Part shown: positions 3,307 to 53,180 of the stretch, piece by piece
Layout: each line of letters opens with the position of its first letter
Position numbering within the stretch: position 1 is the first letter of the stretch
IMG/VR virus record: IMGVR_UViG_3300009537_000010
Coordinates: 1-58,823 of that record
DNA from: a virus
Taxonomy: Duplodnaviria > Caudoviricetes
DNA length: 58,823 bases
Strand: one strand, 5' to 3'
Translations under genes and position numbers: made by a program
Notes under the pieces: model-generated
What the model saw: the letters and a program-made list of their open reading frames with translations, nothing else
What the model was told of the DNA's origin: nothing
The model's database searches: none

Positions 3307-3680
3307 AATACATAAGGCAGTTTAAGTAGTATAGGAAACTCTCCTTTACTTCTTTCACTTCTAATATATTTTCTCAGAAGTTGAAGTTTGTCATGAGGAA
3401 TTATACCATCCTCAGTATATTTTAGAAATCCTTTCTCCATCAGACTCTTCTTAAGATGAGAAAGCTGGGCAATACTCATTTTTAAAGTAGCAGCTATCCT
3501 CTTATGAGAAGCTCTCTTGAAAATAGGCTTATCTATATTTCCTGCCAGGACTATTGATAGCACATCAATCTCTCTATCAGTAAGCACTTCATAGTTAAGG
3601 TTAATCACCTTCAGATATATATTCCAGAATTTATCTTCTGAAACGTTAATATCCTGACCTTTGTTTATATCAATTTCCAT
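3303..3680 (-). CDS. winged helix-turn-helix DNA-binding protein
   Basis: LTDREIDVL...KRIAATLKMSIAQLSHLKKSLMEKGFL is a wHTH signature. Confidence 0.65.
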   Translation of the reverse strand: MEIDINKGQDINVSEDKFWNIYLKVINLNYEVLTDREIDVLSIVLAGNIDKPIFKRASHKRIAATLKMSIAQLSHLKKSLMEKGFLKYTEDGIIPHDKLQLLRKYIRSERSKGEFPILLKLPYVL

Positions 3681-4158
3681 AATTTATTTCTATAGCTCTC
3701 CTCACCCATCCTGATAAGAAGACCTTTAATGATTTCTTAGCTTGAGCAAGATCAACATAGTATTTTATCCTCTCGACTGTCAATGCACTATTAAATAAAA
3801 ATGGAGCATTATCAAGAGCTTCCCTGGTTCTCTCATCTAAGACACCAGTTATCTCAAGGTTAGCATTTATCCTATTTAATGTTCTCTGTAAAGTCTTGAC
3901 AGCGTTTCTATTACCCATATTTACAGACATATCAAACATCTGTAACCTTACAGAGACAGGATAGTTTTCAATCTTATACTTATTCCAAAAGTCTCTTTTA
4001 TAGATTTCAACAGCTTGCTCTTTAGTTAAATTCTTAATGTCAAGATCAGGGTAACTTCGTTTGGTAATACCCCAATTAGTCTCACCACCAGGGTCGGAAG
4101 GATGATTAACATATCCACCTTCATGTTTTAAAACACTTAATATGGCAGTACTAAACAT
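3670..4158 (-). CDS. endolysin, glycoside hydrolase family 108 with C-terminal peptidoglycan-binding region
   Basis: HEGGYVNHPSDPGGETNWGIT, FDMSVNMG and FLSGWVRR motifs; start placed at ATG 4158 (ORF track 4191). Confidence 0.92.
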   Translation of the reverse strand: MFSTAILSVLKHEGGYVNHPSDPGGETNWGITKRSYPDLDIKNLTKEQAVEIYKRDFWNKYKIENYPVSVRLQMFDMSVNMGNRNAVKTLQRTLNRINANLEITGVLDERTREALDNAPFLFNSALTVERIKYYVDLAQAKKSLKVFLSGWVRRAIEINYGN

Positions 4159-4456
4159 TATCAGTAATTTTCCAGTCATTCGCATAAGCATCTTCTTTTG
4201 ACGGAGTCCATAACATCAAAGTATGGTCACCAGTAAACAGGCACAAATCCTGATCTTTATCAAAATATAACTGTCCTCTAGGCCAGGATTGCCGGGTTAC
4301 AGGTATTCCATTCTTAACGAAACATAGAGCCTGATAAAAGGTCAAGTTCTCTTCTTTCTCAGGTAAATCAAGATGCATAGAACTTCTAATCACATACAGT
4401 GTATCCCTCACAAGGTCAATATGGGATAGATCTGGTTGAATACCTCTTCTTTTCAT
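4151..4456 (-). CDS. DUF2829 / Tad2-like protein (putative anti-defence signal sponge)
   Basis: LTFYQAL..VKNG.PVTRQSW...WTPSKEDAYANDWKI matches the family pattern F.eAl..lK.G..v.R.gW...W.ps..D.la.DW. Confidence 0.7.
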   Translation of the reverse strand: MKRRGIQPDLSHIDLVRDTLYVIRSSMHLDLPEKEENLTFYQALCFVKNGIPVTRQSWPRGQLYFDKDQDLCLFTGDHTLMLWTPSKEDAYANDWKITDNV

Positions 4457-7557: not shown

Positions 7558-7632
7558 TGCCGGATAGCTCACCGGGTGAGAGCGAGAGTTTGTGGAGCTC
7601 TAGGGTAGGGTTCGAGTCCCAGCCGCGCATCA
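7558..7632 (+). tRNA. degenerate tRNA-His(GUG)-like gene
   Basis: D arm gctc/gagc, anticodon arm agagt-ttGTGga-gctct, T loop ggTTCGAgtcc; acceptor stem has 3 mismatches and T stem one. Confidence 0.55.
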
Positions 7633-11565: not shown

Positions 11566-13151
11566 ATGGAAGATAAAGCAAGTATAATCATAAATGTGCC
11601 CATAAATAGCCATATCATTGTTCTCGACCAAGAGGATGAGGCTAAAATCATTTGGGCAACAGAGGGAGCTAATTATTGGTCTGCTCTCATAGACATAAAA
11701 GATGCTCTTCGTCAAAAAGTTAAGTATGGAGATCCTGATAAACAATTTTCAGCAGAGTATTTGCAAAGTAGATTCTTTCATATTTTAGAAAGTAATCACG
11801 TTGACTTAGATAAAATAAAATAATGAAAACTGTATATAGTATAGATGAAGCCAGAGATTGGTTCTTTGAGAATCATGAAGGTTCTGTAGCCTGCGTCAAG
11901 GACAACGGAGATGCAAGAATTTGTAAAAGTTATGTGGAAGCGAAGGAGTTTTATAAGCAGGATATCAGTGGGCCAAATACTCCTATTTTTAGGTCTGTTG
12001 GGAATACTCATTGAGTATGGAATAATAATGTGTTCTCTTTTGTTCTTATGTTTTTTAGGGTTTCTTTTAATGTTTGAAGAATGATTACAATTATAGTTGT
12101 TATAATCCTTATATTGTTAATAATCGACGACTCTATGCGAAAGTCTGAAGATAAAAAATATCTTGACGAATGAAACTACTTATGATAATATTCATAATAG
12201 CCTGGATAATGTTTATTGCCAAGGTTGTATTTCTACCTATCATGGATTTTTTGGGAATTTATAGATGGGTTGTAAGAAACTTTGTATTTGATGTTTGTCA
12301 GAATATCTCACTTCATACTCAAGAATTCACTATAAATAGAAGGACACAAAGAGTATATGAACCTGAACTTGATGAAGATACCTGGATCTTTGATGGATAT
12401 GATATTCTACATAAAGATTATATCATAAGAAAGTCTTCTTTTGAGTTAAAGGATAGAACAATAAAACTTAGAAGAAGTGAGGTAAGGTTAATCAATAAGA
12501 CAATTGACCAGCTCAACGATACAAAAGAAAAGAAAAGAAAAGATAAACTATATTACCAATCACTACAAGAGTTACTCGATGAACATGCTAAGGAAGTTAC
12601 TTAGATGGTTGCTTAGACAACCTATAATAATTACAGGGCCTTTGTGGATATGTGATAATAATGCATTCACTTTTAATGGAATGCTTGTTAACTATCCTAG
12701 TAAGGTAAAACAAAAGAACTATAAGTCTTCTAAGATTGATGTGGTAGCTAAGCTTACTAAACCAGTAAAAAAAAGATTTGATAATGACTATATGAAAGCC
12801 AAGTTGAGCATCGACAATGGAAGATTTTACATGGAATGGGTGAATGGAATGACTACTAAGACAGACGATCTTTCAATGTTTAAGTTTGCACCTAAAAGAA
12901 TATCCATCAGAGTACTCAATGTTGAACGTAGAATATTCTTTACCCCTAATATAGGCGAAATGCTTTATCTTACACTTGATAGACTGGATTTGAAGGCAGA
13001 TGATGTTTTATATCATAAGCATGTAAAAACCTTTCAGATATTAGATGATCGAACTATTATGCATGGTATAGGTAAAATTTATCGTGTAGTAGCATTGAGA
13101 TCCCATACTCCTTTAACTATCGGCACAATGTTAACATTATGGAAGTATTAG
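11566..13151 (+). other. run of hypothetical ORFs (11566-11823, 11823-12014, 12170-12604, about 12579-13151)
   Basis: coupled ORFs; first start moved to ATG 11566 because the longer call overlaps the tRNA-like element. Confidence 0.55.
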
Positions 13152-13843
13152 TAATCGGTGACATTCACGGACTCGAAACATGGAAACAATTAGTTTCAGA
13201 TGAGTATGACAAGATTATTTTCATGGGAGACTATTTTGATTCTTTCGACATAGACTCAGCTGCCCAAGTTAACAATTTTCTGGATATTCTAAAATATAAG
13301 GAATCAAATGAAAAAGTTGAGTTACTTACAGGAAATCATGATTTTCAGTATTTTCCTGATTTTGGTGAAAGATATTCTGGTAGACAGAGTGGTGTTTGGC
13401 CTATTAAAATTAGGGAAGTTCTTAAGAGTGCGCCGTTGAAAATGTGTCACATTCATGATAATTTTCTTTTCACTCATGCAGGAGTTACTAAGACTTGGTG
13501 TGAAGAGAATCAAATAGACACAGAAAATCTTGAACAGTCTATCAATGATAGACATAAATACAAGTCATTTTCTTTTTGTTTTGTAAAGTTAGGGCCAGGT
13601 GGAAGATTCTCTAATCCTTATGGTAATGATATCTTTCAATCACCAATCTGGGTAAGGGAAAAATCTCTTCATAACGATGGACTTCCAGGATACCATCAGA
13701 TTGTCGGTCACACTCCACAAAGTCTAATAAGAAAAGAACGAAATGTAACTTTCGTAGATTGTCTTCCTCATCAGTGCCTGATAATAGAAGACGGGAAACA
13801 AATTGTTTACGATATAGATTTACAAACTTATGATACAATTTGA
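13139..13843 (+). CDS. calcineurin-like metallophosphoesterase
   Basis: GDIHG, GDYFD, GNHD, THAG, GHT motifs. Confidence 0.92.
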   Translation: MEVLVIGDIHGLETWKQLVSDEYDKIIFMGDYFDSFDIDSAAQVNNFLDILKYKESNEKVELLTGNHDFQYFPDFGERYSGRQSGVWPIKIREVLKSAPLKMCHIHDNFLFTHAGVTKTWCEENQIDTENLEQSINDRHKYKSFSFCFVKLGPGGRFSNPYGNDIFQSPIWVREKSLHNDGLPGYHQIVGHTPQSLIRKERNVTFVDCLPHQCLIIEDGKQIVYDIDLQTYDTI

Positions 13844-14797
13844 GGTACTGACTTTCGAACGAAGAATCTTCGGTTCTCCCCTCATCTTTGAAATAACAAA
13901 GACAGGTGAGAATTGGGAGATTCATCTTGTTTTCAGGCATGAGGAAATGTATAAACACTATCTTAAGTCTGAAAAAAAGATTCAAAAATATATGAGCAAA
14001 GTTCTTGAGTTGATCAAGAGGAGACAACCTGTAATGCAAATTTATAATTTCACACAAAAGGAATTCTATGAATAAGATAGGAACAATATATAGCTGTAAC
14101 CATACTTTTGGAGAACTTAGTTATGAGTTTAAGAATGGTATGCATTGTTATACGCTTGGATCATACGTATTAACAAGCACAGAGTATTTTCCAATTCTTG
14201 ATGTCCCTGGTCTTATGATGGGGGTGGATCATGAGGGGCGTATTCATGGTAAATTGTGTGCAATTGGAGTTGCTGTAACAAGAGCTAAATTTAAAGACTT
14301 AAATGGTTATTTTCCTACAAGTCCTTCTCCAATAAGTATGTTGAAATTTATTTTATTGAGTAAAAAGAAAAAGTGTAAAGTTACTAAAGCTTATGAATAT
14401 TAAAACAGACTCTGGATATTATCTTATAAAGTTTGCTCATAAGGTAAATCACGAAAAAAATGCTGTATGCTTTTGTTTCATAAAAAATGAGAAACAAAGT
14501 ACTGTCAGTTCATTTGTGGAATTTCCACTCCGCAACTATACAAAGAAAATAGCAATATATAAAGCATTTGTTGAAACAATGCATCTTGCTATATCAGAAG
14601 ACTTTGTTTCTGGAAAAGATATTGAAACGTTATTCCTTGGATTTAAAAATAGAGGAAGGAAAAATGACCTATTCGTGTACAAAGGTACTGAATATTTAAT
14701 TGACCGTATGTCCACTGGACAGATGAGAGAGATATTTAGAGAAGTATCTCGACACTTAGCTAAACAAACTGTTAAAAATTTAAATTCTGTAGTATGA
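13830..14797 (+). other. three hypothetical ORFs (13830-14075, 14068-14403, 14393-14797)
   Basis: overlapping start/stop coupling. Confidence 0.55.
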
Positions 14798-15426
14798 AAC
14801 ATTTAATGTTATTCGCACTTATGTGCATCCCTTTTATGCTGTCCGCACAGAGTGGATGGCAAATTGTAAATAGTCGACAGGATGGGCCAATACCTCTTGT
14901 TACTATGAAAACCTCAGGAGCAACTGCGCCCAGTAATGCATGGCTCGGATCAGAGCTATTATATGAACTGGGAGAAGCAGATTTTGCTGATAATTTTCTA
15001 CTGCGATCCAGAATATTAGTAGAAATTACAAACACAGGAGATTTACACTTACCAATCATGTCAAATGTGGAAATCACATCTGAGTCTCCATTGAGTGGAG
15101 TAGATATTGGTATTTATCCTTGGCAGCAACTTAATGATAATTTTATCGCTCATGGTGGTGTAGTATTTGCAACTAATGGAGAGTTCAATGAAAATGCCTT
15201 GAAGGTGTTTGGGGGTTTTGAGTTTGTAGCCAACACTACAGGACTACCATTAACTGTAAGTGTAACTCCCTTGTTTACTTTTATGAATAAAGGTACTGTA
15301 GAGTTGGAGACCACTATTATAGTTCCTGTTGGAAATGGTCTGGGCTTACTAGCTCAAGCCAATATACCGTTTAAGAATACTCCAGCTACTTTACAGCTAG
15401 GGGTAGTAATGAACCGGATACTCTAA
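14794..15426 (+). CDS. secreted, probable outer-membrane beta-strand protein
   Basis: signal peptide MKHLMLFALMCIPFMLSA|Q; alternating hydrophobic beta-strand pattern. Confidence 0.55.
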   Translation: MKHLMLFALMCIPFMLSAQSGWQIVNSRQDGPIPLVTMKTSGATAPSNAWLGSELLYELGEADFADNFLLRSRILVEITNTGDLHLPIMSNVEITSESPLSGVDIGIYPWQQLNDNFIAHGGVVFATNGEFNENALKVFGGFEFVANTTGLPLTVSVTPLFTFMNKGTVELETTIIVPVGNGLGLLAQANIPFKNTPATLQLGVVMNRIL

Positions 15427-15460
15427 GGCAGGGCCTTAGAAGTTTTGTTAATCTTTTATA

Positions 15461-16301
15461 ATGACTTTTCGTGAAATAGCACTATTGTGTTTGTTGGTGG
15501 ATAGGTATAATCCAAATCCACCATCATTAATTGATCAGATGTGGAGTAGAGAATTCTCTCTCTTAATGAAGAGGGGATATGTCGATATTCACGGAGAGCC
15601 TACAAAGAAAGGTAGGTCCAAAGCATATTTCTTCAAAAATAACAGGATTATTTTTGATGAAGAAGCCTCACGTAGAGGTATGAGATATTCCATAGCTATG
15701 ACGCTTGGTGGTCTCAAAGGAATCCAATCTAACTTAGGTCAAGAGCCAGAATTGGAAGAAAGATTCTTTGAAACTTTGAGGGAATATGAAGAAAGAATAC
15801 TACCTGAGTTGGCGTAGCAAGAAGGGAATTCCCCTTCTTGTTACTCCTCTCGAATTTGTAGGTTATGGTTCTTCATTTACAATTAATGGTGTTGTTTATG
15901 AAGAACAAAAATGGAGATGTAAACTTCCAGATGGAAAGATTGCAACTCTAAGTTTTAGAGAGGTAAAGGGTAATGACTCTGAAACCTCGCATGTTGAAAA
16001 TCCCAACCCAATAACAGATAACCAGCCAGATCCTATACAGTTTACAAGAGAAGAGATGGAGCATGGCAAGACTGGCACCAATTTTATGTTAAAAATGAAA
16101 ATTAAGGAAAGCAATCTTCTAAAGAGAAAAATTAAATCGTTAGATTTAGAAGGTGCAAAAGAATATCATAAGGCGTTAAAGTCTCCTTCCATGGCAACTG
16201 TAAATGCATGGAGAAAATGGGTTAAAGACAACCCTGATAAGCATGAAAAATTTAAGGAGGCCCTGTGGAGTCTGAAAGAAGAATTGAGATCTACGACATA
16301 G
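15461..16301 (+). other. two hypothetical ORFs (15461-15817, 15786-16301)
   Basis: ORF track, contiguous with the polymerase gene. Confidence 0.55.
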
Positions 16302-19247: not shown

Positions 19248-19386
19248 TATTATTAAGTACCTTTCATAAGATTATGGAGGCATCTAATGAAGGGATTGAA
19301 TTGAAACAATTTAAAGATGTACAAATGGAAGAGAAGATGACATCAAAAGAGCAACTCTATTATGTTGTACACGAAAAGGAGGAATT

Positions 19387-19824
19387 ATGATTTATGTTAA
19401 AGATAGACCAAGTCTGATAAAAAGTAGAAAATCACTATCTGAATTTATAGAACATTTCATAAGAACCTCTCCTGGTACGTTTGATAAAGATGGTGAACTA
19501 CAATGTTTTCCAAGAAAAAAGAGATCATTTGGAGACACTGTGGCATTATGTAAGACTTATTTTAAGTGTACCAAAGTTGATGTGGCTAAGGTCCTTCTAG
19601 AACTTTGCTCTCAAGGTATAGCAAGAATTAGTTATTGTCCTACTATAAGAAAGAGAGTTATTTTTATTAATAATAACGCAAATTATAGTGTTCGCCATAG
19701 CAGATATGTGACAGGACTACTTAGAATGTGTGGTTACAAATATAATATTGAACATTATCACTCTTGTGTAATGATCTGTTATCAAAGTGATAATGGAAAA
19801 AGAATAATAATTTCAAATTATTGA
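19387..19824 (+). CDS. hypothetical protein, paralog of 18160-18456
   Basis: QCFPRKKRSFGDTVALCKTYF...YCPTI. Confidence 0.6.
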   Translation: MIYVKDRPSLIKSRKSLSEFIEHFIRTSPGTFDKDGELQCFPRKKRSFGDTVALCKTYFKCTKVDVAKVLLELCSQGIARISYCPTIRKRVIFINNNANYSVRHSRYVTGLLRMCGYKYNIEHYHSCVMICYQSDNGKRIIISNY

Positions 19825-20669
19825 CGAAAAATGAAGTAGGAGAACAAGCGTTAGATTCACTAGAGAATCTTGAAGGTATTCTTGATATGGCCCCCAGAAC
19901 CGGAAAGACAAAGATAGCTATTGAAGCCATCCGACATTTTCCAGGTAAAGTACTTGTAACTTATCCTTATAATGTTATTGGTGAGGTATGGAGAGAGGAG
20001 CTACAAAAATGGAATGGCCCTTCTTTAACTCTGGCAAATCAACGAAACATACCAGATGAAGAATTTGACTTGATTATTTGTGATGAAATCCATAGTTTAA
20101 GTGAGGCTCAAATAAATAGACTTAAAGGTAGTAAGATCCTCGGTTTAACTGGATCATTGTCAGAAGAAACAGCTAAAATACTTAAACAAAAACTTGGACT
20201 TGACGTAAAGTATACCTACACAATAGATCAGGCAATCATAGATGGTATTATATCTAATTATCAGATCACAGTATTTTTTCTCCCACTGGATACTAAGGAA
20301 AAATATGTAGAAGCTGGTACTAAGAAAAAACCGTTCTTAACAACAGAACGTGTCAATTATGAGTATTTAACTAAACAATTCAATCGTTTTAAATACTTAT
20401 CTTGGCAAGATCCAACATTAGCAAATGTAAAAATGTCTTTTGCTGGTAAGAGAGCAAGAGGTATCTATTCTTATAAAAGCAAATTAGAAGCAGTTAAATC
20501 CTTCCTAAGAACTCTTGATGAAAGGTATATGATTTTCACTGTATTAAATAATATTGCTAATGAATTATCAGAACATAGATATCACTCTAAATCAGAAGGA
20601 GACGAGCTGGATAAATTTATAAATGGTGAATTTCCCAGTATTTCAGTATGTAATATGGTATCAATGGGT
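19821..20669 (+). CDS. superfamily 2 DExH helicase, exon 1
   Basis: Walker A APRTGKT, DEIH, motif III LTGS; homology breaks after ...NMVSMG in motif V. Confidence 0.85.
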
Positions 20670-20719
20670 AGACTTAAATGCCCCTTTAATTAATAATAAT
20701 TTTAGCAAACACAGAATCC

Positions 20720-21097
20720 ATGGAATTTAAAAGCGTAGAGGAGATTTTATCCCTAGACCTGGAGGAGGATGACGCACTCATTGGTCCTTTTTCGGTAGGC
20801 GACAAAAATAGTTATACTCTTGAGGTCATGCATCCGGGTTGGAACTGTCAACTGGTAGTACTTGATGCAGTAGATGCTTTTCTTCGAAGAAACCTAAATG
20901 TAGACATGCAAGAGTTCAAAGAAGTAGTATCTAGAATTATGAGACCTTGTGTCTTTATACATTTGACTGATCCAGATATAATGGATCTTATAGAGCAACA
21001 TTTTGAAGTACTATACTGTAACGAAATAGTTGCCAGAAATGGTCATATTCAATATCATATACTGTTTAAAAATCCTCGCTACATACCATGGGGTTGA
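20720..21097 (+). CDS. intron cargo ORF1, unknown function
   Basis: 125-aa ORF between P1 and P4; no HNH, GIY-YIG or LAGLIDADG motif seen. Confidence 0.7.
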   Translation: MEFKSVEEILSLDLEEDDALIGPFSVGDKNSYTLEVMHPGWNCQLVVLDAVDAFLRRNLNVDMQEFKEVVSRIMRPCVFIHLTDPDIMDLIEQHFEVLYCNEIVARNGHIQYHILFKNPRYIPWG

Positions 21098-21124
21098 AAA
21101 GCTAACGGAGAAACTCTTTTTAAT

Positions 21125-21490
21125 ATGAAAACAATAGAATCGGAATTAGAGAAATATATTGAGAAGACAACTGCCGTCGCGTCACTTGATTTTACTGATG
21201 CAATCTATATTAAATCTCCAAGAGATCATAGAAAGAGAAAACAATGGACTCAAGTCCATGAAATACAGTGGATGATAAATGGAGATTACTGGATAGTAAA
21301 AACCAATCGTTTTGGTTGGGAAATGCTATCTGATTGTATTATAAAACAAAACGCGCGAGAGACTGACAATGTGCAACCTAATCTAAAAGAGATTCTTGAT
21401 TATTGCAAGAGACACCATTTAAAATGTGTGGAAGAATTTGATCAAAAATGTTGGTCAGAAGTAATTAAGATTTATCTAAGGAAAGGTTGA
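21125..21490 (+). CDS. intron cargo ORF2, overlapping the ribozyme core
   Basis: 121-aa open frame covering P4', P6, P7 5' strand and P8; stop TGA lies at the end of P8'. Confidence 0.6.
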   Translation: MKTIESELEKYIEKTTAVASLDFTDAIYIKSPRDHRKRKQWTQVHEIQWMINGDYWIVKTNRFGWEMLSDCIIKQNARETDNVQPNLKEILDYCKRHHLKCVEEFDQKCWSEVIKIYLRKG

Positions 21491-21519
21491 AGATACAGTC
21501 CAAATTACAAATATAAACG

Positions 21520-22071
21520 ATGAAAAATTTTAATAGAAGATTGACTTATTCTGCATATAATGATAAAGAGAAGGTACTTGACATAGATCATGAGATGTGT
21601 TTTGGTGATCTTAGAAGATTAACTCACAAATATACACATATCAAGATTAAGTTGTTTAGAAGATCTAAGAAATTTGAGGAGATAGTAAACAAAATTCATC
21701 CTATCACTATTGATGACGATTTTCTACAATTTGAAACTCTTGGTTATAAGAAAGATTTAATGTTTCTTACACTTCTGAGACCGTTGTGTGAAAGATATTG
21801 CATAGGTGACTCAGAAAATCATATTGGAGATTGTGAAAAGATCTTGAAGTCGTTTGAAGAGAATGTCTCCGAATACGAAGATCCAATGAGTCAATACTGT
21901 GATTTAGTCGAGAAATGTCATATACCATTAATGGCAGGAGGTTTTGGATATTATAAGTCTCATTATCTTGGTGCAACTAAAGACTTACAGATAAAAACAT
22001 TGGAAGACTTTAAAAGTTATGTACCTGGTCAAGTATCATGGGTCAATAAATTCTTCACTACTAAATTGTAA
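21520..22071 (+). CDS. intron cargo ORF3 in the P9 loop
   Basis: 183-aa ORF enclosed by ttacaa (21505)/ttgtaa (22066); weak resemblance to 28722-29276 and 29895-30416. Confidence 0.7.
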   Translation: MKNFNRRLTYSAYNDKEKVLDIDHEMCFGDLRRLTHKYTHIKIKLFRRSKKFEEIVNKIHPITIDDDFLQFETLGYKKDLMFLTLLRPLCERYCIGDSENHIGDCEKILKSFEENVSEYEDPMSQYCDLVEKCHIPLMAGGFGYYKSHYLGATKDLQIKTLEDFKSYVPGQVSWVNKFFTTKL

Positions 22072-22079
22072 ACAAAAAG

Positions 22080-22304
22080 GTTACGATACCAGATTTAAAA
22101 ATAGGTGTTTTTCATCAACTTCAATCATCTGAAGAGTTGGCAATCCAAAAGTCATTAAGATTTATGAATCTTGACGAAAATAAAATTGCTCAGCTCTATA
22201 TATTTGCGTATGCGAATACAGTTGACCAGGAGTGGGTTGAGAAAGCCATAAAACCATTTAAAAATATTACTTATGCTTATTGGGATCAACCAACTATGCA
22301 ATAA
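22080..22304 (+). CDS. superfamily 2 helicase, exon 2 (absent from the ORF track)
   Basis: VTIPDLKIGVFHQLQSSEELAIQKSLR...YANTVDQEWV supplies the rest of motif V and motif VI; spliced product 357 aa. Confidence 0.85.
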   Translation, partial: VTIPDLKIGVFHQLQSSEELAIQKSLRFMNLDENKIAQLYIFAYANTVDQEWVEKAIKPFKNITYAYWDQPTMQ

Positions 22305-22896
22305 AACAAATAATTACAATGATCTGTTCTCCAAATACGGAGATGTTGTAAATGCTGGATTAAGATTTAATCCAGATATAGAGTTTTTAGTTTTAACAGG
22401 AGGAGCAGATGTAGATCCAGCTAGATATGGTGCAAAAAGAGAGAAACAGACTAGTGATCCTGACCCTTGGAAAGAGAAATTTGATACAGAGCTATTACCT
22501 CTTTACATTGAAAAGGGTATACCTATAGCAGGTATCTGCAGGGGACATCAGACGTTAGCAGTCAACCAAGGTATGTCATTAACTCAACATGTACACCACA
22601 CATGGATGAATGTAATACTATTTGATGGTTACTATCATGTAGTTAACTCTTATCATCATCAGGTAGTTACTGAAGCAAATGAAAATGCTGAAGTTGCTGC
22701 CATAGATACTACATTTGGTACAATTGAAGCGTTAAGATATACTAATATAAATGCTATATCTGTACAATGGCATCCTGAATTACTTTACGAAGACTGTGAA
22801 GTAACCAAAAAACTCCTATCAGAAATTGGAATTAAAGAACCAGTTAAAAAACTTAGGAATAGAAAAAATAGATTCAGTTCTATTATACCTTTTTAG
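22273..22896 (+). CDS. class I glutamine amidotransferase-like / peptidase C26 family
   Basis: LTGGADVDP, GICRGHQ, VNSYHHQ, VQWHPE. Confidence 0.9.
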   Translation: MLIGINQLCNKTNNYNDLFSKYGDVVNAGLRFNPDIEFLVLTGGADVDPARYGAKREKQTSDPDPWKEKFDTELLPLYIEKGIPIAGICRGHQTLAVNQGMSLTQHVHHTWMNVILFDGYYHVVNSYHHQVVTEANENAEVAAIDTTFGTIEALRYTNINAISVQWHPELLYEDCEVTKKLLSEIGIKEPVKKLRNRKNRFSSIIPF

Positions 22897-23350
22897 TCTG
22901 CAATATGATATTAATATTGAGTTAGATATTTCCAAAGAGGATATGGCTCTTATTAAAAAACATAAGCTAGCAAAAAGGAATTATAAGAACGGTAGCTATG
23001 ATACAATTCTTGGGAAAGGTGAAAGGACGAGTACTCTACTTAAAGTTGTAGAAGAGAGAGTAGACGAGTATCGTCTTTTATTCAAAAATACTGGTATTCC
23101 TGGTAAAATGGGTGATAGGAATGCTTGTATCAAGAAATTAGTAAAGTTCTTGGAAATACGTCCTCAGATAACGATGGATGAAGTAATTGAGGTAGCAAGG
23201 TATTATTGTCAAAACTATAAACAGATAACAAATTATCTACAACAAGCAGATTATTTTATAGAAAAGAATGGACAATCAAGACTTGCTGCTTTGTATGATG
23301 AGAGACCTCAACATGTAGAGTCTAATGAGTATGGAGGTAATTTAGTTTGA
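22826..23350 (+). CDS. hypothetical protein upstream of DnaB, possible replication initiator/helicase loader
   Basis: 174-aa ORF coupled to the helicase; function inferred from position only. Confidence 0.45.
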   Translation: MELKNQLKNLGIEKIDSVLLYLFSLQYDINIELDISKEDMALIKKHKLAKRNYKNGSYDTILGKGERTSTLLKVVEERVDEYRLLFKNTGIPGKMGDRNACIKKLVKFLEIRPQITMDEVIEVARYYCQNYKQITNYLQQADYFIEKNGQSRLAALYDERPQHVESNEYGGNLV

Positions 23351-40112: not shown

Positions 40113-40213
40113 AAAATACTTGCGGCTTTGAGAAGTGATTCTCATTGAAAAATTGGATGAATTGCTGGAAAGCTAAAATTAACAATTAATTAACGATAAT
40201 TTAACATAAAATA

Positions 40214-40245
40214 TTTGGATCTTGTCCAATTATTTCGTATACTTA
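40214..40245 (+). promoter_or_regulatory. possible intron-internal promoter for the endonuclease
   Basis: TTTG at 40214 and tttcgTATACTTA, similar to the tttcgTATATTTG promoters at 4461/4751. Confidence 0.4.
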
Positions 40246-40266
40246 TGGGATTAAAACCATAATTTT

Positions 40267-40932
40267 ATGAGAAAAATGACAAGAAATGTTAAAGGACAAT
40301 ATGAAAAGGGTGGTAAAACTCGAAAATACTACCCCAAATTGGGAGACACTTATGGTGATTACATTGTTATTAGTGAAGATGTTGAATTTACTAATGATAA
40401 TAAAATTAAATATCATGTAAGATGTTCCTGTGGATATGAACATTTTGTAAGAGCTTACTTTCTGTTTACTGGTAGACAATTATCTTGTAGAGAATGTAGT
40501 AGTAGAAAAGCTTATAATAGAGCTTTAATAGAAGGTAAAAAAATAGGATTTATAAAATTACATCATGAAGGTGTAGGAAATCTTACTAAAACAGCATATT
40601 GGTATTTTAAAAATAATGCTGCAAGAAGAAAAATAGAGTGGTCTGAAGATTTGACTATTGAATATTTGTGGAAATTATTTCAAGATCAAAATAATAAATG
40701 TGCTCTTTCTGGATTAGATATAAAATTAACAGAAAAGAGAAAATTGTCAAACATAGATTTTGAGTATATGACCGCATCTCTTGATAGAATAGATTCATCT
40801 AAACCATATACCACAGATAATGTTCAATGGGTTCATAAAGATATTAATAGAATGAAATGGTGTTTCAAAGAAAATCGTTTCATTGAATTATGTAAATTAA
40901 TTGTTAATCATGCTAATCAGCAGCCTAGCTAA
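40267..40932 (+). CDS. intron-encoded HNH/His-Me homing endonuclease
   Basis: CSCG...SCREC N-terminal module; CALSG, SLDRIDSSKPYTTDNVQWVHKDINRMK. Confidence 0.88.
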   Translation: MRKMTRNVKGQYEKGGKTRKYYPKLGDTYGDYIVISEDVEFTNDNKIKYHVRCSCGYEHFVRAYFLFTGRQLSCRECSSRKAYNRALIEGKKIGFIKLHHEGVGNLTKTAYWYFKNNAARRKIEWSEDLTIEYLWKLFQDQNNKCALSGLDIKLTEKRKLSNIDFEYMTASLDRIDSSKPYTTDNVQWVHKDINRMKWCFKENRFIELCKLIVNHANQQPS

Positions 40933-41064
40933 GAGTACACTCTTAGAAGGTTCAGAGACTACTGGAGAGGTTTAGCCCTCTTAATAACCAGAATTAGCGT
41001 CCAACTTCCTCTGGCGAGGAAGATGATATAGTCCAAATCTATAAGAAATTATAGAACGAGAATG

Positions 41065-42046
41065 AAGTATTCTCACGCAAACTACTTCAGGATTAGAGCC
41101 ACTCTTTCAGCCATATTACATCAGGAGAAAGAAAGTTAATCCAGGAGACAGAGTAGACTTTGTTGATCAGAACGGTGATTCTTGGCAGGAGTATCCAGTT
41201 CTGCATTCAAAGTTTGTTGACTGGTGTCTCTCTAAGAATGACGGAAACAGTAAAGAGTTCTTAGAGTCTTTAGACAAAGAAACATTAGACGATTTATTTA
41301 AACTCTCTCCTTGGTATGGTTCAACCGCAAATGATATTGACTGGAAAAGCAGAATAGAGATTCAATCCATAATTCAAAAATACACAACCCATAGTATAAG
41401 TAGTACTATAAATCTTCCTAATAATGTAACAAAAGAGGAAGTAAGCGCTATTTACATGGAGGCTTGGAAGAAGGGATTGAAAGGCGTGACAATCTATAGA
41501 GAAGGTAGTAGAACAGGAGTTCTAATCAATAAGAAGGAGTTCAATCAACATGATGCTCCAAAACGTCCTAAGCAATTAGATGCAGTCTGGTATTCTACTA
41601 CAGCATCAAAAGAAGATTTACAGGTTATAGTTGGTCTATATGAGGAGAAACCATATGAAGTGTTTACCATATTTGAACCGCCTGAAATACCTGACTCTAC
41701 TATTGGTGCAGTAGTTAAGAACGCGAAAGGGAAATATTCTTTTCAGTCTCAAGACTATAAGAGAAGTAATATAATGCGTGAAGAGAATTCTGAACATGTA
41801 GCTATTTGTAGATTAGTCTCTACTAGTTTGAGACACGGAGCTGATGTAAAATTTATTGTTGAGCAATTAAACAAGACTCCAGGTGAGTTAAACAGCTTCG
41901 CAAGAGCGATTGGTAGAGTACTAAAAAAATATATACCAGATGGAGAAACAACAACAATCAGATTCGAAGACTGTGAAGGAGACTGTAACATCGTCTTTGA
42001 AGAAGGATGTATCACCTGTAAAACCTGTGGAAAGTCAAAATGTTAA
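41065..42046 (+). CDS. nrdJ: class II ribonucleotide reductase, exon 2
   Basis: open from 41066: TTSGLEP, SISSTINLP, GLKGVTIYREGSR, C-terminal FEEGCITCKTCGKSKC; spliced product 828 aa. Confidence 0.9.
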
Positions 42047-49001: not shown

Positions 49002-49027
49002 AGAGAAGGGGGAAACCCCTTTTCTTT
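49000..49027. terminator. bidirectional terminator
   Basis: aaagagaagggg-gaaa-ccccttttcttt between convergent genes. Confidence 0.8.
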
Positions 49028-52000
49028 ATTGTGTATAATATTTCAAAGTCTCTTCAGGTGTAAACCATCGTTCAACCTGATCTACTGGTGGAATAAGTTT
49101 TCTACTCTTTACCCATAAAAATGTTTCACCTTTATGTTTACCTGATTGATATACCCGTAAAAAAGGTTTATCATTTACCATCCAGCCATAAGGATCAACT
49201 GCGGTAAACAGATCAATTATGTTTTGAACTTGCATTACACCAGCACTTGGAGCTTTCATAATTCTCATAAATTCATTAGGATTAGCATAAAATCCTAATT
49301 CAGACCTTAGTCTGTTAACTTGTAATGCAAACGTATTCAAGAGGTATTTATCATCATCGTCAGCTCCCTCACCTAAGGCTCTCAGTATTCCACCTGCTAC
49401 TACAGCAAATGTAAATTGAGCCATTCCAGTAAGTCCTCTTAGTATATTTGCTCTTTGCCAATCTTCCAACTGGTCATAGTAGGCCATAAGATGAAAGCTG
49501 CCTGCTCTCATCTCACTGATCAAACCTGACATAAACTTGAATAAGGAAATATAAGTTCCTTCATTCATTTTCTCAGTATTGTAATCATAATGTTTTCCCA
49601 CAAACCTTCTCGAAATACCTGGTGGCATCCATGATCTAAAGACCATGGCCATCCTACCTATTGCCCACTGTTTAGCAGCTATTCTATCCATGTCTCCCAT
49701 GTTACCGTGTAACTCACGGTTGAGCTGTTGAATTTTCAGGTAAACTTCCGCTTCGTTTATTTTAACTCCTTCCTTTAGTACTGCTTTGTTATTATCTACC
49801 TTGTATGCCTTAAGCAGTGGTATCTTTTCCCCTTTATATTCTACTTTTATGTTGTTTAAGATGGATAGACCCATTCTTGAACCAACATGTACTTCACCCA
49901 TTCTGGTTGCAAAAAGAGCATGGCTCATGTTAAGCTGACGTTTGAACCAGTCTCTGTCAGTATTCATGCCATATAGCCTAGAGGTATAATCTTGAACCAT
50001 ATCATATTTGTCGATTAAGAGTCGCAAAATATTATTAGTAGTTAGATTACCTATACTGCCAAGATATCCTGCACCATGTCTCATCCAGAAGTTATCAGCT
50101 GCTTGAATATCACTATTGGTTACGTGTTGTCCAGCTACACCCTCTTGTCTAATCAAGAAGTTAGAAATGACAGGGTTAGCTAAAGCTGCACTTAAGTTAA
50201 GAGCAAGTCCTTTTAGTCCCACATATTTATTGAATGTGTCAGCTAGTTTAGCCGTATTAAATTCAATATAGTAGCCACCTCCCTTCTTTGGTAACCATTT
50301 AATATCCTCTCCGGGTTTCTTACTTTTACCATACATATGCATTTGTAGAAAGTCGTGATAACGATCTGCTACAAACCCGCCTGTTCTAATTACTTCTTTT
50401 ACATTCTTATCTATAAGAGATCTAAACTTACCTAACCAGGTTGGTTTTCCTGTTATCTTTCTCTTCTTTAGCACATCCTCTCCCACCTCAAGTATGTCAA
50501 TGTAATCCTTCATTGTTATATAATGTTGAGCCATTTCCATATATAACAACAAAGATCTCGTCGGATCATCACTTAGATCTGAAGGATCTATCTTCCTGAT
50601 AAAATTAACAGGAAGAGTGTCATACCTCTTGTTATTCTCATCTGTAATAACAAATTCTCCTCCAAACTCTGTTTCGTCTTGTCTTTTGTTAAACCATTCG
50701 TACATTTCTTGCTTGATTGCATCAAATGGTTTGTCTTTTATCCTCTCCATTAAATCTTTATGGACCTGAACAGCTCTATGTGGTACTCCCATTGGTAGTA
50801 ACTTATCAAAACTAGCTTTCAAATCCATGTAGTACTTATAGAATTTCTTCTTTGCAGGATCAGCTTGTATCTCATCGTATTGAAGATTACTATATCTCTC
50901 ACTAGGTCTCAACAGCTGACCTTTAACGTAAAAAGGATCTTTATGTGATCTCTCTCGATAAGCAGAATAACCTATATTCTCATTTACCCATTCCTGAAAT
51001 AGACGTTGTACATATTTTTCATCCTCATTTAACGCTGTCTTACCTTCACCTAATGAAGGAAACCATTTATGATATCCTTTAATGGTGTTTCTAATTATTT
51101 GATCTATAGAGTCCTGATTTATATCGTGAAACTCATCTTTATAGAGTCTCGTAATATAGTCCATTATGATATTAGGAGTATCAGGATTTTCTTCAGTGTT
51201 ATCCTTCATCCAAATAGCCCAGTCTCTATTGTACATTTTTCTTGTAGCGTCAATCTCTGCAAGCTTCTGTTCTACATCATTGGAGAATCCAGTATAAGCG
51301 AATTTCTTATTCAATCTCTCTCTCAGATAAGCGTTCGGTTTCCAGTTCTTTACAGTTTCAGCATCATAAATAAATAGTTTTCTCCTATCTTCCGCATCTT
51401 CTGGTAGTCCATATTTCTCTATTAACTCTTTACTCATTTTAGCTTCTTCTCTTTCATACTCCTCCATATTCCTATCTGTTACTAAATTGTTAGTAGGTTT
51501 ACCATCAACCTGTTCTTTCATCCACTTAAAATCCCCAACTTTTTTCTTTGTCTCTTCAGCTATAACTAAAAGATCTTGACCTTTTGCATGATTAATGATT
51601 CTATCTTGAGCTTGCAAGTGTTGAACAGCTCTGGCTACACCACCCAAAACATCGTTAGGAGTCTCTGCCATGGCTGATAAGAATCTGTGATACATGTTAA
51701 TATCCTTGCCTTCCTTAAGCATAGCTACTAGGTCATCACGACTGTGAATATCAGGGTGATTCTTAAAATGAGGAAGAATGTAATCAGCTATAAGATAAGG
51801 CGCATCATTTTCATAAAGAGTAATGAGATCATCAATAGTTGATTGTATTTTTATTAACTCATTTCGTATTTCTGTGTAACGTTCTCCATCATACTCAGCT
51901 AAACCTGCCTTAATATTACGAATAATACCATTATAGGCTTCTGCTAATGAATTAAGATCTTTAAGATGTTTAGCTATTATGTTTTGTTCTGAGCTTAGTG

Positions 52001-53180
52001 CTCTGTCTTTTATTCTTTTGTATTTAGTAAAAGCTCTCTCAATGTCAGAACCTATATAATTGATAGCATTCACAACACCATAAGTAACCTTATCATTATG
52101 GAGCGCCCTGTTAAGCGTTGTTAACCGCTTGTTAATTTCAGTTTTATTTACAGCTTTATCTTTAGTGTAAGCTATTTTTGTTCTAAGTATAGTTTTATTG
52201 ATAGTTTCTTCAAGCTGTTCTTTAAATCTATTTAATATTGTAGATTGTTCATATTTCTCAACATCAATATCAAAATAAAACTTGTCTGTTAAATCAAAAT
52301 TAGGATCAACATTAGCTCCTATTAAGTCTTTAGCAATATCATTTATATGAGACTGTAACTCTTCGTGGTTGTTAAAGAATGACATAAACTTATCCCAAAG
52401 ATGAGTGATAACATTTGCCAGTCTTCTATAAGGTTTAATGTTATTTCTAATCTGATTCCAAATCAATCTATCAAGTACCTCTTTTCTTACATCCTCTTCG
52501 TTACCATATTTGCTCATGTAAGCATCGTGTAACTCTTCATATTCTTTAGTCTCTACAACTAACTCTAAAGCTCTCTTATAACGAAAATCATCCTTGAGTC
52601 CTACAGTTGCAAAGTGAACCACCTCTTGAGATAAGGCTTTTTCGTTACCCTTCTTGACAGCTATAGTTCTGTTCAGAATATCAACGATACCCTGAACATC
52701 TTCATCCAAAACCTTACCTGTCCTCTTTTTGTATTCATCATGGTATTCCTCAAAGATACCAACCCTTAAACCTAATTTAATCATTAATGATCTAAGAGTG
52801 TCAAGAACTTCATCTCTCTTTTCTACAACATCGTCTGGTACTTTAATCTCACCCTCATCTTCTACAAAGGTTTGCTGTTTAGCAAAGTATTCTGCTATCT
52901 TCTGTTCAGCAATAGGATTAATGTTAACCTTAATTCTCCTACTTCTATCCTGTCCTACTATCCTTTCTCCATACTGCTTGTTGATACTGTTAATTAGAGC
53001 CATTCCATCTTTAATACGCTCTGTGTCATATTTAGGTAAGTACAGTCCTTTATTGGCTCTCCTAAATAATTTACTGTCTTCCAGACGAGTCATAACTGAC
53101 TTATAGATACCATAAGCTATTTGAGCTTCTGTATTCTCGTACTTTCTTTTATTGTGGATGAAACAACTCATTATTCGCAA
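49026..53180 (-). CDS. giant virion/ejection protein of the crAss-like RNAP gene block
   Basis: 1384 aa, largely helical, degenerate zincin-like QEVVH, coupled to the RNAP gene. Confidence 0.65.
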   Translation of the reverse strand: MRIMSCFIHNKRKYENTEAQIAYGIYKSVMTRLEDSKLFRRANKGLYLPKYDTERIKDGMALINSINKQYGERIVGQDRSRRIKVNINPIAEQKIAEYFAKQQTFVEDEGEIKVPDDVVEKRDEVLDTLRSLMIKLGLRVGIFEEYHDEYKKRTGKVLDEDVQGIVDILNRTIAVKKGNEKALSQEVVHFATVGLKDDFRYKRALELVVETKEYEELHDAYMSKYGNEEDVRKEVLDRLIWNQIRNNIKPYRRLANVITHLWDKFMSFFNNHEELQSHINDIAKDLIGANVDPNFDLTDKFYFDIDVEKYEQSTILNRFKEQLEETINKTILRTKIAYTKDKAVNKTEINKRLTTLNRALHNDKVTYGVVNAINYIGSDIERAFTKYKRIKDRALSSEQNIIAKHLKDLNSLAEAYNGIIRNIKAGLAEYDGERYTEIRNELIKIQSTIDDLITLYENDAPYLIADYILPHFKNHPDIHSRDDLVAMLKEGKDINMYHRFLSAMAETPNDVLGGVARAVQHLQAQDRIINHAKGQDLLVIAEETKKKVGDFKWMKEQVDGKPTNNLVTDRNMEEYEREEAKMSKELIEKYGLPEDAEDRRKLFIYDAETVKNWKPNAYLRERLNKKFAYTGFSNDVEQKLAEIDATRKMYNRDWAIWMKDNTEENPDTPNIIMDYITRLYKDEFHDINQDSIDQIIRNTIKGYHKWFPSLGEGKTALNEDEKYVQRLFQEWVNENIGYSAYRERSHKDPFYVKGQLLRPSERYSNLQYDEIQADPAKKKFYKYYMDLKASFDKLLPMGVPHRAVQVHKDLMERIKDKPFDAIKQEMYEWFNKRQDETEFGGEFVITDENNKRYDTLPVNFIRKIDPSDLSDDPTRSLLLYMEMAQHYITMKDYIDILEVGEDVLKKRKITGKPTWLGKFRSLIDKNVKEVIRTGGFVADRYHDFLQMHMYGKSKKPGEDIKWLPKKGGGYYIEFNTAKLADTFNKYVGLKGLALNLSAALANPVISNFLIRQEGVAGQHVTNSDIQAADNFWMRHGAGYLGSIGNLTTNNILRLLIDKYDMVQDYTSRLYGMNTDRDWFKRQLNMSHALFATRMGEVHVGSRMGLSILNNIKVEYKGEKIPLLKAYKVDNNKAVLKEGVKINEAEVYLKIQQLNRELHGNMGDMDRIAAKQWAIGRMAMVFRSWMPPGISRRFVGKHYDYNTEKMNEGTYISLFKFMSGLISEMRAGSFHLMAYYDQLEDWQRANILRGLTGMAQFTFAVVAGGILRALGEGADDDDKYLLNTFALQVNRLRSELGFYANPNEFMRIMKAPSAGVMQVQNIIDLFTAVDPYGWMVNDKPFLRVYQSGKHKGETFLWVKSRKLIPPVDQVERWFTPEETLKYYTQ

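Follow-up and report, generated by a model that had tools for sequence, protein, structure and literature searches.

A group I intron with three open reading frames in a phage SF2 helicase gene and its gene-bearing relatives

Why does a phage helicase gene break off within one of its conserved motifs and resume 1410 nt later, and what are the genes in between doing there? This question is raised by a 58,823-nt stretch of viral DNA (IMG/VR record IMGVR_UViG_3300009537_000010; hereafter the window), in which positions 20670–22079 form a gap that splits a superfamily 2 (SF2) helicase gene at its motif V codons. An initial annotation had proposed that the gap is a group I intron carrying three tandem open reading frames (ORFs) and no recognisable homing endonuclease. 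Our comparative analysis bears out the group I intron in motif V through related introns and covariation, and we put the probability that 20670–22079 is an intact group I intron in this gene at roughly 0.85.

Helicase exons and ribozyme anatomy

The interrupted gene is composed of three parts:

19821–20669 (+): helicase exon 1; 283 codons, ResIII / SF2 N-terminal part, ending ...NMVSMG
20670–22079 (+): group I intron; 1410 nt, last base G 22079
22080–22304 (+): helicase exon 2; 74 codons plus stop, beginning VTIPDLKIGVFHQLQSSEE..., with no start codon of its own

Taken by itself, the first piece reads as a helicase ORF (19821–20693) that matches ResIII in Pfam as well as PHROG DNA helicase families and reaches a stop 8 codons past the MG pair ending at 20669. 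The frame of exon 2 opens at 22065, directly behind an in-frame TAA (22062–22064), and offers as its first possible start a TTG at 22137, there being no earlier ATG, GTG or TTG. Since exon 2 lacks a start codon and has this stop ahead of it, it cannot be a normal separate gene. Joining of the exons gives a helicase of 283 + 74 = 357 aa, with the predicted RNA junction ATGGGT joined to GTTACG. The splice register is fixed, since neither 20669 and 22079 (T and G) nor 20670 and 22080 (A and G) are the same base: the junction cannot be slid by one base either way, and exon 1 must end in U and the insert in G.

The break after SMG at 20669, the resumption at 22080 and the 357-aa join, all put forward by the initial annotation, are borne out by an alignment of the two helicase pieces with 16 of 29 database homologues (20 homologues were read altogether). 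Twelve of the aligned homologues continue MG(I/V)TIPNLK... at the point where exon 2 of the window starts (VTIPDLK...), and with two more the number that read through the junction point rises to 14 of 20. The chain is broken exactly after MG in six of the 20 (P0002, P0003, P0004, P0009, P0011, P0014), and the tails of P0003, P0004, P0009 and P0011 are compatible with the 5' end of the intron family described below. In P0002 (449 aa) and P0014 (431 aa) the reading frame stays open beyond this MG break for 150–200 residues; these extensions are unlike the start of the window intron and may be different inserts at the same site. A further 80 helicase relatives were retrieved from IMG/VR with a 6-row alignment (a single-protein query found none) and served as a chance control: all 80 are uninterrupted at the motif V site, the frame continuing for 64–92 codons past it in 78 and stopping after 31, at motif VI, in two (L052, L053). 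The comparison with intron-less helicases, suggested as a check by the initial annotation, shows the break to be a repeated insertion at a single codon and not the natural end of the gene. As a separate observation, L052 and L053 read ...ELIQR followed by KLCAFVW and a stop about 93 nt past the motif V site, where the others have QRIGR (motif VI); this divergence may reflect another intron at a different site. A blastn search of 19300–22900 against GenBank phages gave no match.

The elements of the ribozyme (P, paired; L, loop; J, joining segment; a prime marks a 3' strand) and the three ORFs are arranged as follows, with the P5, P6a, P9 and P10 helices assigned by eye from the sequence:

20666–20669 (+): P1 5' strand GGGU, in exon 1; U20669 and G20680 form a U.G pair at the splice site
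20677–20683 (+): internal guide sequence; AAU (20677–20679) with exon 2 GUU (22080–22082) as P10, GCCC (20680–20683) with exon 1 as P1
20685–20704 (+): P2 hairpin, UUUAAUUA, loop AUAA, UAAUUUUA; 6 of 8 positions paired in the window
20710–20713 (+): P3 5' strand CACA
20715–20723 (+): 5' strand of the ORF1 hairpin, AAUCCAUGG; holds the ORF1 start codon
20720–21097 (+): ORF1, 125 aa; fills the loop of the hairpin inserted into the P3 5' strand
21086–21095 (+): 3' strand of the ORF1 hairpin, CCAUGGGGUU; abuts the ORF1 stop codon
21105–21110 (+): P4 5' strand ACGGAG
21115–21118 (+): P5 5' strand UCUU
21125–21490 (+): ORF2, 121 aa; start in L5, stop UGA in P8'/J8/7
21164–21167 (+): P5 3' strand AAGA
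21171–21177 (+): P4 3' strand CUGCCGU, with one bulged G
21178–21182 (+): P6 5' strand CGCGU
21186–21194 (+): P6a 5' strand UUGAUUUUA
21342–21349 (+): P6a 3' strand UAAAACAA
21351–21355 (+): P6 3' strand ACGCG
21358–21365 (+): J6/7 and P7 5' strand (AGA GACUG)
21370–21373 (+): P3 3' strand UGUG
21374–21379 (+): P8 5' strand CAACCU
21484–21489 (+): P8 3' strand AGGUUG
21490–21500 (+): J8/7 AAGAUA and P7 3' strand CAGUC
21505–21510 (+): P9 5' strand UUACAA
21520–22071 (+): ORF3, 183 aa; in L9, stop in P9'
22066–22071 (+): P9 3' strand UUGUAA, with the ORF3 stop codon inside

The order of these strands is canonical for a group I core, including the P3/P7 pseudoknot. P1 GGGU/GCCC, P4, P6, P7, P8 and J8/7 GAAGAUA had already been proposed at these positions by the initial annotation and gain covariation support in the relatives; the terminal G is present as it had stated and is the only proposed feature without such support. 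P3, which it had left ambiguous, can now be placed as CACA/UGUG: a search in a fixed register beside P4 failed, and the helix was then located on the 5' side of the ORF1 hairpin. A visual comparison with the consensus of the Rfam group I model RF00028 shows AGAGACUG (J6/7–P7) and GAAGAUACAGUCC (J8/7–P7') of the window to agree with aAGACUA and gAAGAUAUAGUCu; relative to the consensus AGACUA / AAGAUAUAGUC, P7 of the window differs by one compensated A-U to G-C swap. Subgroup IA2, to which introns of the T4 td type belong, is defined by P7.1/P7.2 between P7 and P3'. P7 and P8 of the window are spaced by 8 nt only (ACAAUGUG), which leaves no P7.1/P7.2, and for this reason the intron is not filed under IA2.

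Across the family, compensatory changes keep P1, P10, P2, P3, P4, P5, P6, P6a, P7 and P8 paired. For P1 and P2 of 12 aligned introns, 95.1% of the cells are paired versus 78.2% in shuffles, a value reached by 0 of 500 shuffles, and slid controls are paired to 24–63%; both sides have changed in 9 of 12 P1 and P2 pairs (7 of 8 for P2), and the splice-site U.G pair is found in 12 of 12. The guide changes together with the exons it binds: P1 is GGGU/GCCC in the window versus GGCGU/GCGCC and CCGU/GCGG in two ribonucleotide reductase introns, and P10, 3–4 base pairs long, follows exon 2 from AAU/GUU in the window to UUAU/AUAA in locus L088 and UUUU/AAAA in the six DnaB-gene introns read. In 10 of 10 introns, P3 forms between the four bases that precede GAAUCC and the four that precede P8, with five different pair sets (CACA/UGUG, CUUU/GAAG, UUCC/GGAA, UUCA/UGAA, CUCA/UGAG). 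The consensus of P4 is ACGGGG/UCCCGU, with ACGGCG/CGCCGU in L088, while P5 occurs, as read by eye, as CCUUUA/UAAAGG, CCAUUA/UAAUGG, UCAA/UUGA and UCAU/AUGA, and P6 as GCCGU/ACGGU, GCCGU/ACGGC, CACGU/ACGUG and ACCGU/ACGGU. P6a is UUGAUAAU-GUAA-AUUACAA in the second, compact intron of L177 (intron B), P7 ACUG/CAGU in the window versus ACUA/UAGU in the first (intron A), and P8 CAACCU/AGGUUG in the window versus GAACCU/AGGUUC in Cellulophaga phage phi14:2. The introns of L088, L092, L124, L125, L141, L147 and L175, whose 3' ends were read, likewise terminate in G.

Several observations count against the assignment. The covariance-model search proposed by the initial annotation failed: RF00028 has no match on 20400–22400 even at E ≤ 10, none on L088 (E ≤ 10) and none on eight relatives (E ≤ 0.01), and Rfam at its gathering threshold over the window reports no group I match at the helicase gap. 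We attribute this miss to inserts of 0.1–0.6 kb that break up the core; as a consequence, the group I assignment rests on our own comparative model. The guide helices are short (P1 4 and P10 3 base pairs), and the P2 loop is AUAA in the window versus GNRA in relatives. A second half of P3, in which UU(A)G (before CUA-ACGG) pairs with CAA after P7 in most relatives, is nearly absent from the window; the P9.1 hairpin with the loop CAGAAAUGA, found in 10 of 17 loci scanned, is missing altogether, and P9.2 is lacking as well. Because P9.1 is lacking and the second half of P3 is weak, the window copy may splice poorly or need a helper. Finally, the search patterns with which the relatives were found fixed parts of P7 and P8, so that variation in these two helices is under-sampled.

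Related introns and their cargo

A degenerate-pattern search (CNMVxMG, then AR) led to locus L088, where a related insert of 1215 nt interrupts the helicase at the very same codon: its last base is G, it holds two ORFs and a 145-nt ORF-free 3' part, and the nucleotide blocks common to it and the window include P4, P6, P7, P8 and J8/7. The pattern GGTTGAAGNNACAGTCC (J8/7–P7') returned 34 loci, of which 32 are chance hits and two, L088 and L092, are real. A J6/7–P7–P8 pattern returned 74 loci (7 viral, 67 metagenome): 16 rows have a P8'/P7' partner within at most 600 nt, 4 more share the same flank and 54 are due to chance. Merging of 4 duplicate contigs reduces the 20 related rows to 16 loci, which together with the second L177 intron, phi14:2 and the window make up 19 introns, that is, 18 relatives in 17 other records. 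They reside in four kinds of host gene, and their target sites in replication genes are GGGU, GGCGU or CCGU; the following list leaves out L127, L128 and L181:

SF2 helicase: window, L088
DnaB-like helicase, Walker A codons split between ANSKVG and KTQ: L092, L124, L125, L141, L147, L156, L158, L175, phi14:2
DnaB-like gene directly downstream of the intron: L145
Family A DNA polymerase (PolA): L143, L135
Ribonucleotide reductase: L177, twice (exon upstream of intron A by eye, exon before intron B by Pfam)

The two introns of L177 lie in one ribonucleotide reductase gene, at 3410–4420 and from 5514 onward. Intron B has a compact, ORF-free core, and its ORFs sit in the P3 hairpin, L5 and L9. In the cultured crAss-like phage phi14:2 (L194, NC_021806.1, about 13100–15900) the intron lies in the DnaB gene: exon 1 ends ...GTGGGT, the core is found at locus positions 3700–3930 and g025–g028 fall inside the intron, whereas in the record g029 alone is annotated as DnaB and no intron is marked. 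Phi14:2 (Crassvirales) and Flavobacterium phages are also the nearest cultured relatives of the window contig, and the introns form a family of marine phages, which probably infect Bacteroidota and are probably crAss-like. Two very long minus-strand ORFs at the end of the window, 49026–53180 (1384 aa) and 53171–58822 (more than 1846 aa), would, along with these relatives, fit a crAss-like phage. Elsewhere in the window, at 7558–7630, Rfam reports a tRNA match of 30 bits (cut-off 29) with several non-standard pairs, and ARAGORN finds no tRNA in the window.

A blastn search with the compact core of L177 intron B returned only matches of 27–39 nt (E 0.007 to 1). The P8–J8/7–P7' segment has 39-nt matches of 85–87% identity in GenBank phages such as CR9, PBES 02, CB7 and SSE121, i.e. 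in Cronobacter, Pectobacterium, Salmonella, Klebsiella and Escherichia phages, nearly all in unannotated stretches or records; these may be unannotated introns.

Turning to the cargo of the window, we confirmed the three ORFs of 125, 121 and 183 aa. All lie within 20670–22079, as had been claimed, but only in part as cargo of loops: the frame of ORF2 crosses P5', P4', P6, P6a, P7, P3' and P8 and thus overlaps the ribozyme core itself. The AUG and the stop of ORF1 lie at opposite ends of the stem that closes its hairpin, and relatives have a small hairpin at this position with the conserved flanks GAAUCC...GGGGUU. ORF3 occupies L9, which in L088 is a 15-nt loop. An ORF that crosses the core like ORF2 is present in 18 of the 19 introns, the exception being L177 intron B. 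The P4'–J6/7 distance varies between 106 and 286 nt, yet division by 3 leaves a remainder of 1 in 16 of the 17 introns measured, and intron B (39 nt) is again the one that deviates; from this conserved spacing we infer that the phase of ORF2 is under selection. The relatives of ORF2 share the invariant peptide blocks DNPVPS(L/I)D and NGVET..QP, which are the RNA core read as protein. Their loop-coded parts are variable, with CxC...CxxC peptides in L8 in many of them, and residues 14–87 of ORF2 are 44% identical to the L6a-coded counterpart in L177 intron A, which resides in a different host gene.

By codon usage, the three ORFs look like real genes: ORF1, ORF2 and ORF3 score 0.40, 0.27 and 0.35 versus 0.41 ± 0.05 for 23 long phage ORFs, and their off-frame scores are −0.65 to −1.24. 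Searches of Pfam and PHROGs (E ≤ 0.1) and of NCBIfam (E ≤ 1) assign none of them to a homing endonuclease family, in keeping with the initial annotation; the only Pfam/PHROGs matches at E ≤ 0.1 are non-significant PHROGs of unknown function (two for ORF2, one for ORF3). Searches of ORF1 and ORF3 against 5.8 billion proteins, and of ORF3 against 1.84 billion representatives, returned self-matches only. PADLOC yielded nothing for ORF1–3 and PDB sequence searches nothing useful, and all Atlas feature and structure matches for ORF3 and ORF1 stay below the bars that the tool sets; the models are poor (predicted local distance difference test, pLDDT, 0.52 and 0.35).

Counted as sense-strand ORFs of at least 50 aa in complete introns, the cargo comprises two ORFs in L088, three in the window, four in L125 and in L141, five in L147 and six in L124 and in L175: two to six ORFs per intron are the rule in this family. 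The L5-coded N-terminal part of ORF2 in L092 is a GNAT domain (PF00583, 28.4 bits versus a cut-off of 20.7). The commonest L9 cargo of the relatives, a family of 11 members, is predicted to adopt a GNAT fold in residues 76–218 (model pLDDT 87.3): all 50 structure matches listed (VIA) have a GNAT-type or related acyl-CoA acyltransferase fold, the best with Z up to 9.3 and a root-mean-square deviation of 2.2 Å over 107 aligned residues. ORF3 of the window is unrelated to this GNAT-fold family, as hhalign comparisons with two cargo families of relatives gave probabilities of 0.1% and 0.5%. ORF2 of L088 has weak zinc-ribbon matches below the Pfam cut-off.

One further gene of the window has its family relatives among this cargo and itself lies outside the intron:

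19387–19824 (+): neighbour gene upstream of the helicase; overlaps the helicase start by 4 nt

Its family has 10 members of about 140 aa, and all of the other nine lie within related introns, either 5' or 3' of the core. The model of the protein (pLDDT 64.6) is winged-helix-like over residues 1–95, with a pLDDT below 50 for the C-terminal 50 residues; its best Foldseek match (E = 0.013) points to a DNA-binding fold only, and no nuclease motif or fold was seen in the family. The upstream gene in L088 is unrelated to it, despite the same intron site.

Splicing, expression and spread

On the basis of the anatomy, exon continuity, covariation, family and coding signal established above, splicing, expression and mobility may be inferred to proceed as follows. 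In the pre-mRNA, the guide AAUGCCC (20677–20683) would pair with GGGU of exon 1, with the U.G pair at the splice site, and with GUU of exon 2. The P3–P9 core would then fold and an external guanosine cleave after U20669, whereupon the freed exon 1 would attack after G22079 to yield the junction ATGGGT–GTTACG and the 357-aa helicase. What stretches the ribozyme to 1.4 kb is the presence of three genes at insertion-tolerant places. Ribosomes that translate ORF2 would have to unfold P4–P8, and one molecule should consequently be unable to splice and to serve ORF2 translation simultaneously. The start codon of ORF1, in turn, would be sequestered in a stem. Given both circumstances, translation of the ORFs may take place on the intron RNA after its excision or on transcripts that remain unspliced.

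One possible reading, to which we give less than even odds, is that the introns are modular carriers of exchangeable non-nuclease genes and not endonuclease vehicles, a kind of self-removing 'operon'. The carrier would offer at least five insertion places (P3 hairpin, L5, L6a, L8, L9), with a sixth near P9.2 in relatives; its cargo would include proteins of GNAT and winged-helix fold as well as orphans like ORF1 and ORF3; and the open frame through the core would let ribosome traffic and ribozyme folding gate each other. If this holds, accessory genes are housed in essential replication genes at no cost to those genes.

An ordinary mobile intron is a possible alternative, to which we give real weight short of thinking it probable: one ORF would be a divergent, unrecognised homing endonuclease that cuts intron-less helicase alleles, and the others would be passengers. 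ORF2 would be the most plausible candidate, being the only ORF kept family-wide, with ORF1 or ORF3 as alternatives. Several helicases carry the intron at one identical codon, and in four gene families its sites are precise, which implies site-specific spread; 18 of 19 introns contain an ORF that is read across the core; the CxC...CxxC peptides in L8 of many ORF2 relatives and the weak zinc-ribbon matches in L088 point the same way, and ORF1 and ORF3, being orphans, are compatible with a nuclease identity. Against this stands that the window ORFs match neither an endonuclease family (Pfam, PHROGs, NCBIfam, E ≤ 0.1 to 1) nor a PDB sequence. Moreover, conservation within ORF2 coincides exactly with the core segments that are under RNA constraint; the L5-coded N-terminus is hypervariable and in L092 a GNAT domain, and the commonest L9 cargo of the relatives is predicted to have a GNAT rather than a nuclease fold.

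Spread without an endonuclease of its own appears rather unlikely to us. It could occur in trans, by means of an adjoining free-standing nuclease or DNA-binding gene, or by passive recombination between co-infecting phages. The gene at 19387–19824 would be well placed for such a role, as it adjoins the helicase, its nine other family members are all intron-borne and the N-terminal part of its model is winged-helix-like; in addition, an HNH/EndoVII-like enzyme is encoded in a second group I intron of the same genome, in the ribonucleotide reductase gene (about 40132–41455; core 40844–41055; ORF 40267–40932). Yet the family of 19387–19824 shows no nuclease motif or fold beyond the Foldseek hint at DNA binding, and L088 has an unrelated gene upstream of an intron at the same site.

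We consider it very improbable that the insert is a decayed remnant that no longer splices, with the helicase a pseudogene or two separate pieces. The missing Rfam match, the absence of P9.1/P9.2 and the weak half of P3 would suit decay, but both exons are intact and in register with the homologues, pairing is kept in every core helix, exon 2 has no start codon and an in-frame stop ahead of it, and the guide matches the codons of its own gene (AAU/GUU in the window versus UUAU/AUAA in L088). An intein, a group II intron or translational bypass can practically be dismissed: helicase motifs are common intein sites and the frames of P0002 and P0014 stay open into the inserts, but the helicase frame of the window meets a stop 8 codons past the junction and many more thereafter, Pfam and PHROGs scans reveal neither a Hint nor a reverse-transcriptase domain, the insert start AGAC... 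differs from the group II 5' consensus, and 1410 nt far exceeds every ribosomal hop that is known.

Should the group I reading and the family be correct, they would account for a set of interrupted 'hypothetical' genes of marine, crAss-like and flavobacterial phages, among them the DnaB gene of phi14:2. A ribozyme core would then double as protein-coding sequence with a conserved phase, and the introns would provide natural examples of the tolerance of group I ribozymes towards kilobase inserts, useful for RNA engineering. One would also have to ask by what route an intron that lacks a recognisable endonuclease arrives at one and the same codon in different phages.

Comparison with known introns

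Phage group I introns of the textbook type, such as those of T4 td, nrdB and nrdD, contain no ORF or a single homing endonuclease. The intron of the window resembles them in its P1–P10 architecture, the U.G pair at the 5' splice site and the terminal G, in its insertion into conserved motifs of DNA-metabolism genes and in having ORFs in peripheral loops; the start codon of ORF1 lies in a stem, as does that of I-TevI. It differs from them in that it contains three ORFs (two to six in complete relatives) instead of none or one, that this cargo has no HNH, GIY-YIG, LAGLIDADG, PD-(D/E)xK or EDxHD profile match, that one ORF runs across the whole P4–P8 core and that an extra hairpin interrupts the 5' strand of P3. 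In classical phage introns, some endonuclease ORFs extend into core sequences, according to a figure legend (PMC3984707).

The ribonucleotide reductase intron of the same genome provides an internal comparison. It shares the J6/7–P7 and J8/7–P7' consensus with the helicase intron, and its guide GCGG pairs with the exon CCGU (by eye), as in L177 intron B. Unlike the helicase intron, it is compact and detected by Rfam (RF00028, 37.8 bits, below the 50-bit cut-off), and its single ORF (40267–40932) matches endonuclease VII / HNH PHROGs, which makes it an intron of the conventional endonuclease-bearing type.

Several genes in one group I intron are on record from fungal mitochondria, where two reports describe a cob intron with as many as five LAGLIDADG genes as well as non-endonuclease cargo (rps3, aminotransferases, N-acetyltransferases) (PMC11835236, PMC8393795); the former calls introns with multiple endonucleases surprising and previously unreported. 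These introns differ from ours in being organellar and, as far as the available text goes, in that their multiple ORFs are recognisable endonucleases. Among phages, core genes of some crAss-like groups are dense in group I introns (Yutin et al. 2021, PMC7886860). The accessible part of that survey does not mention multi-gene cargo; there the introns were located via endonuclease domains, so that introns like that of the window would be missed. More generally, the present family escapes phage surveys that rely on endonuclease or compact covariance models. Our searches of the literature outside subscription journals and supplements turned up no report of a phage group I intron that carries several non-endonuclease genes or keeps a conserved frame open across its core, and the gene-laden family in marine phages thus appears previously undescribed.

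The last system to be compared is that of fractured genes, in which split inteins are combined with a free-standing endonuclease and one or more inserted genes divide replication genes of phages from marine metagenomes (PMC2677866). In contrast to these cases, as far as the accessible part of that report describes them, the helicase gene of the window carries no intein halves, and its exons adjoin each other to the nucleotide and enclose a ribozyme core.

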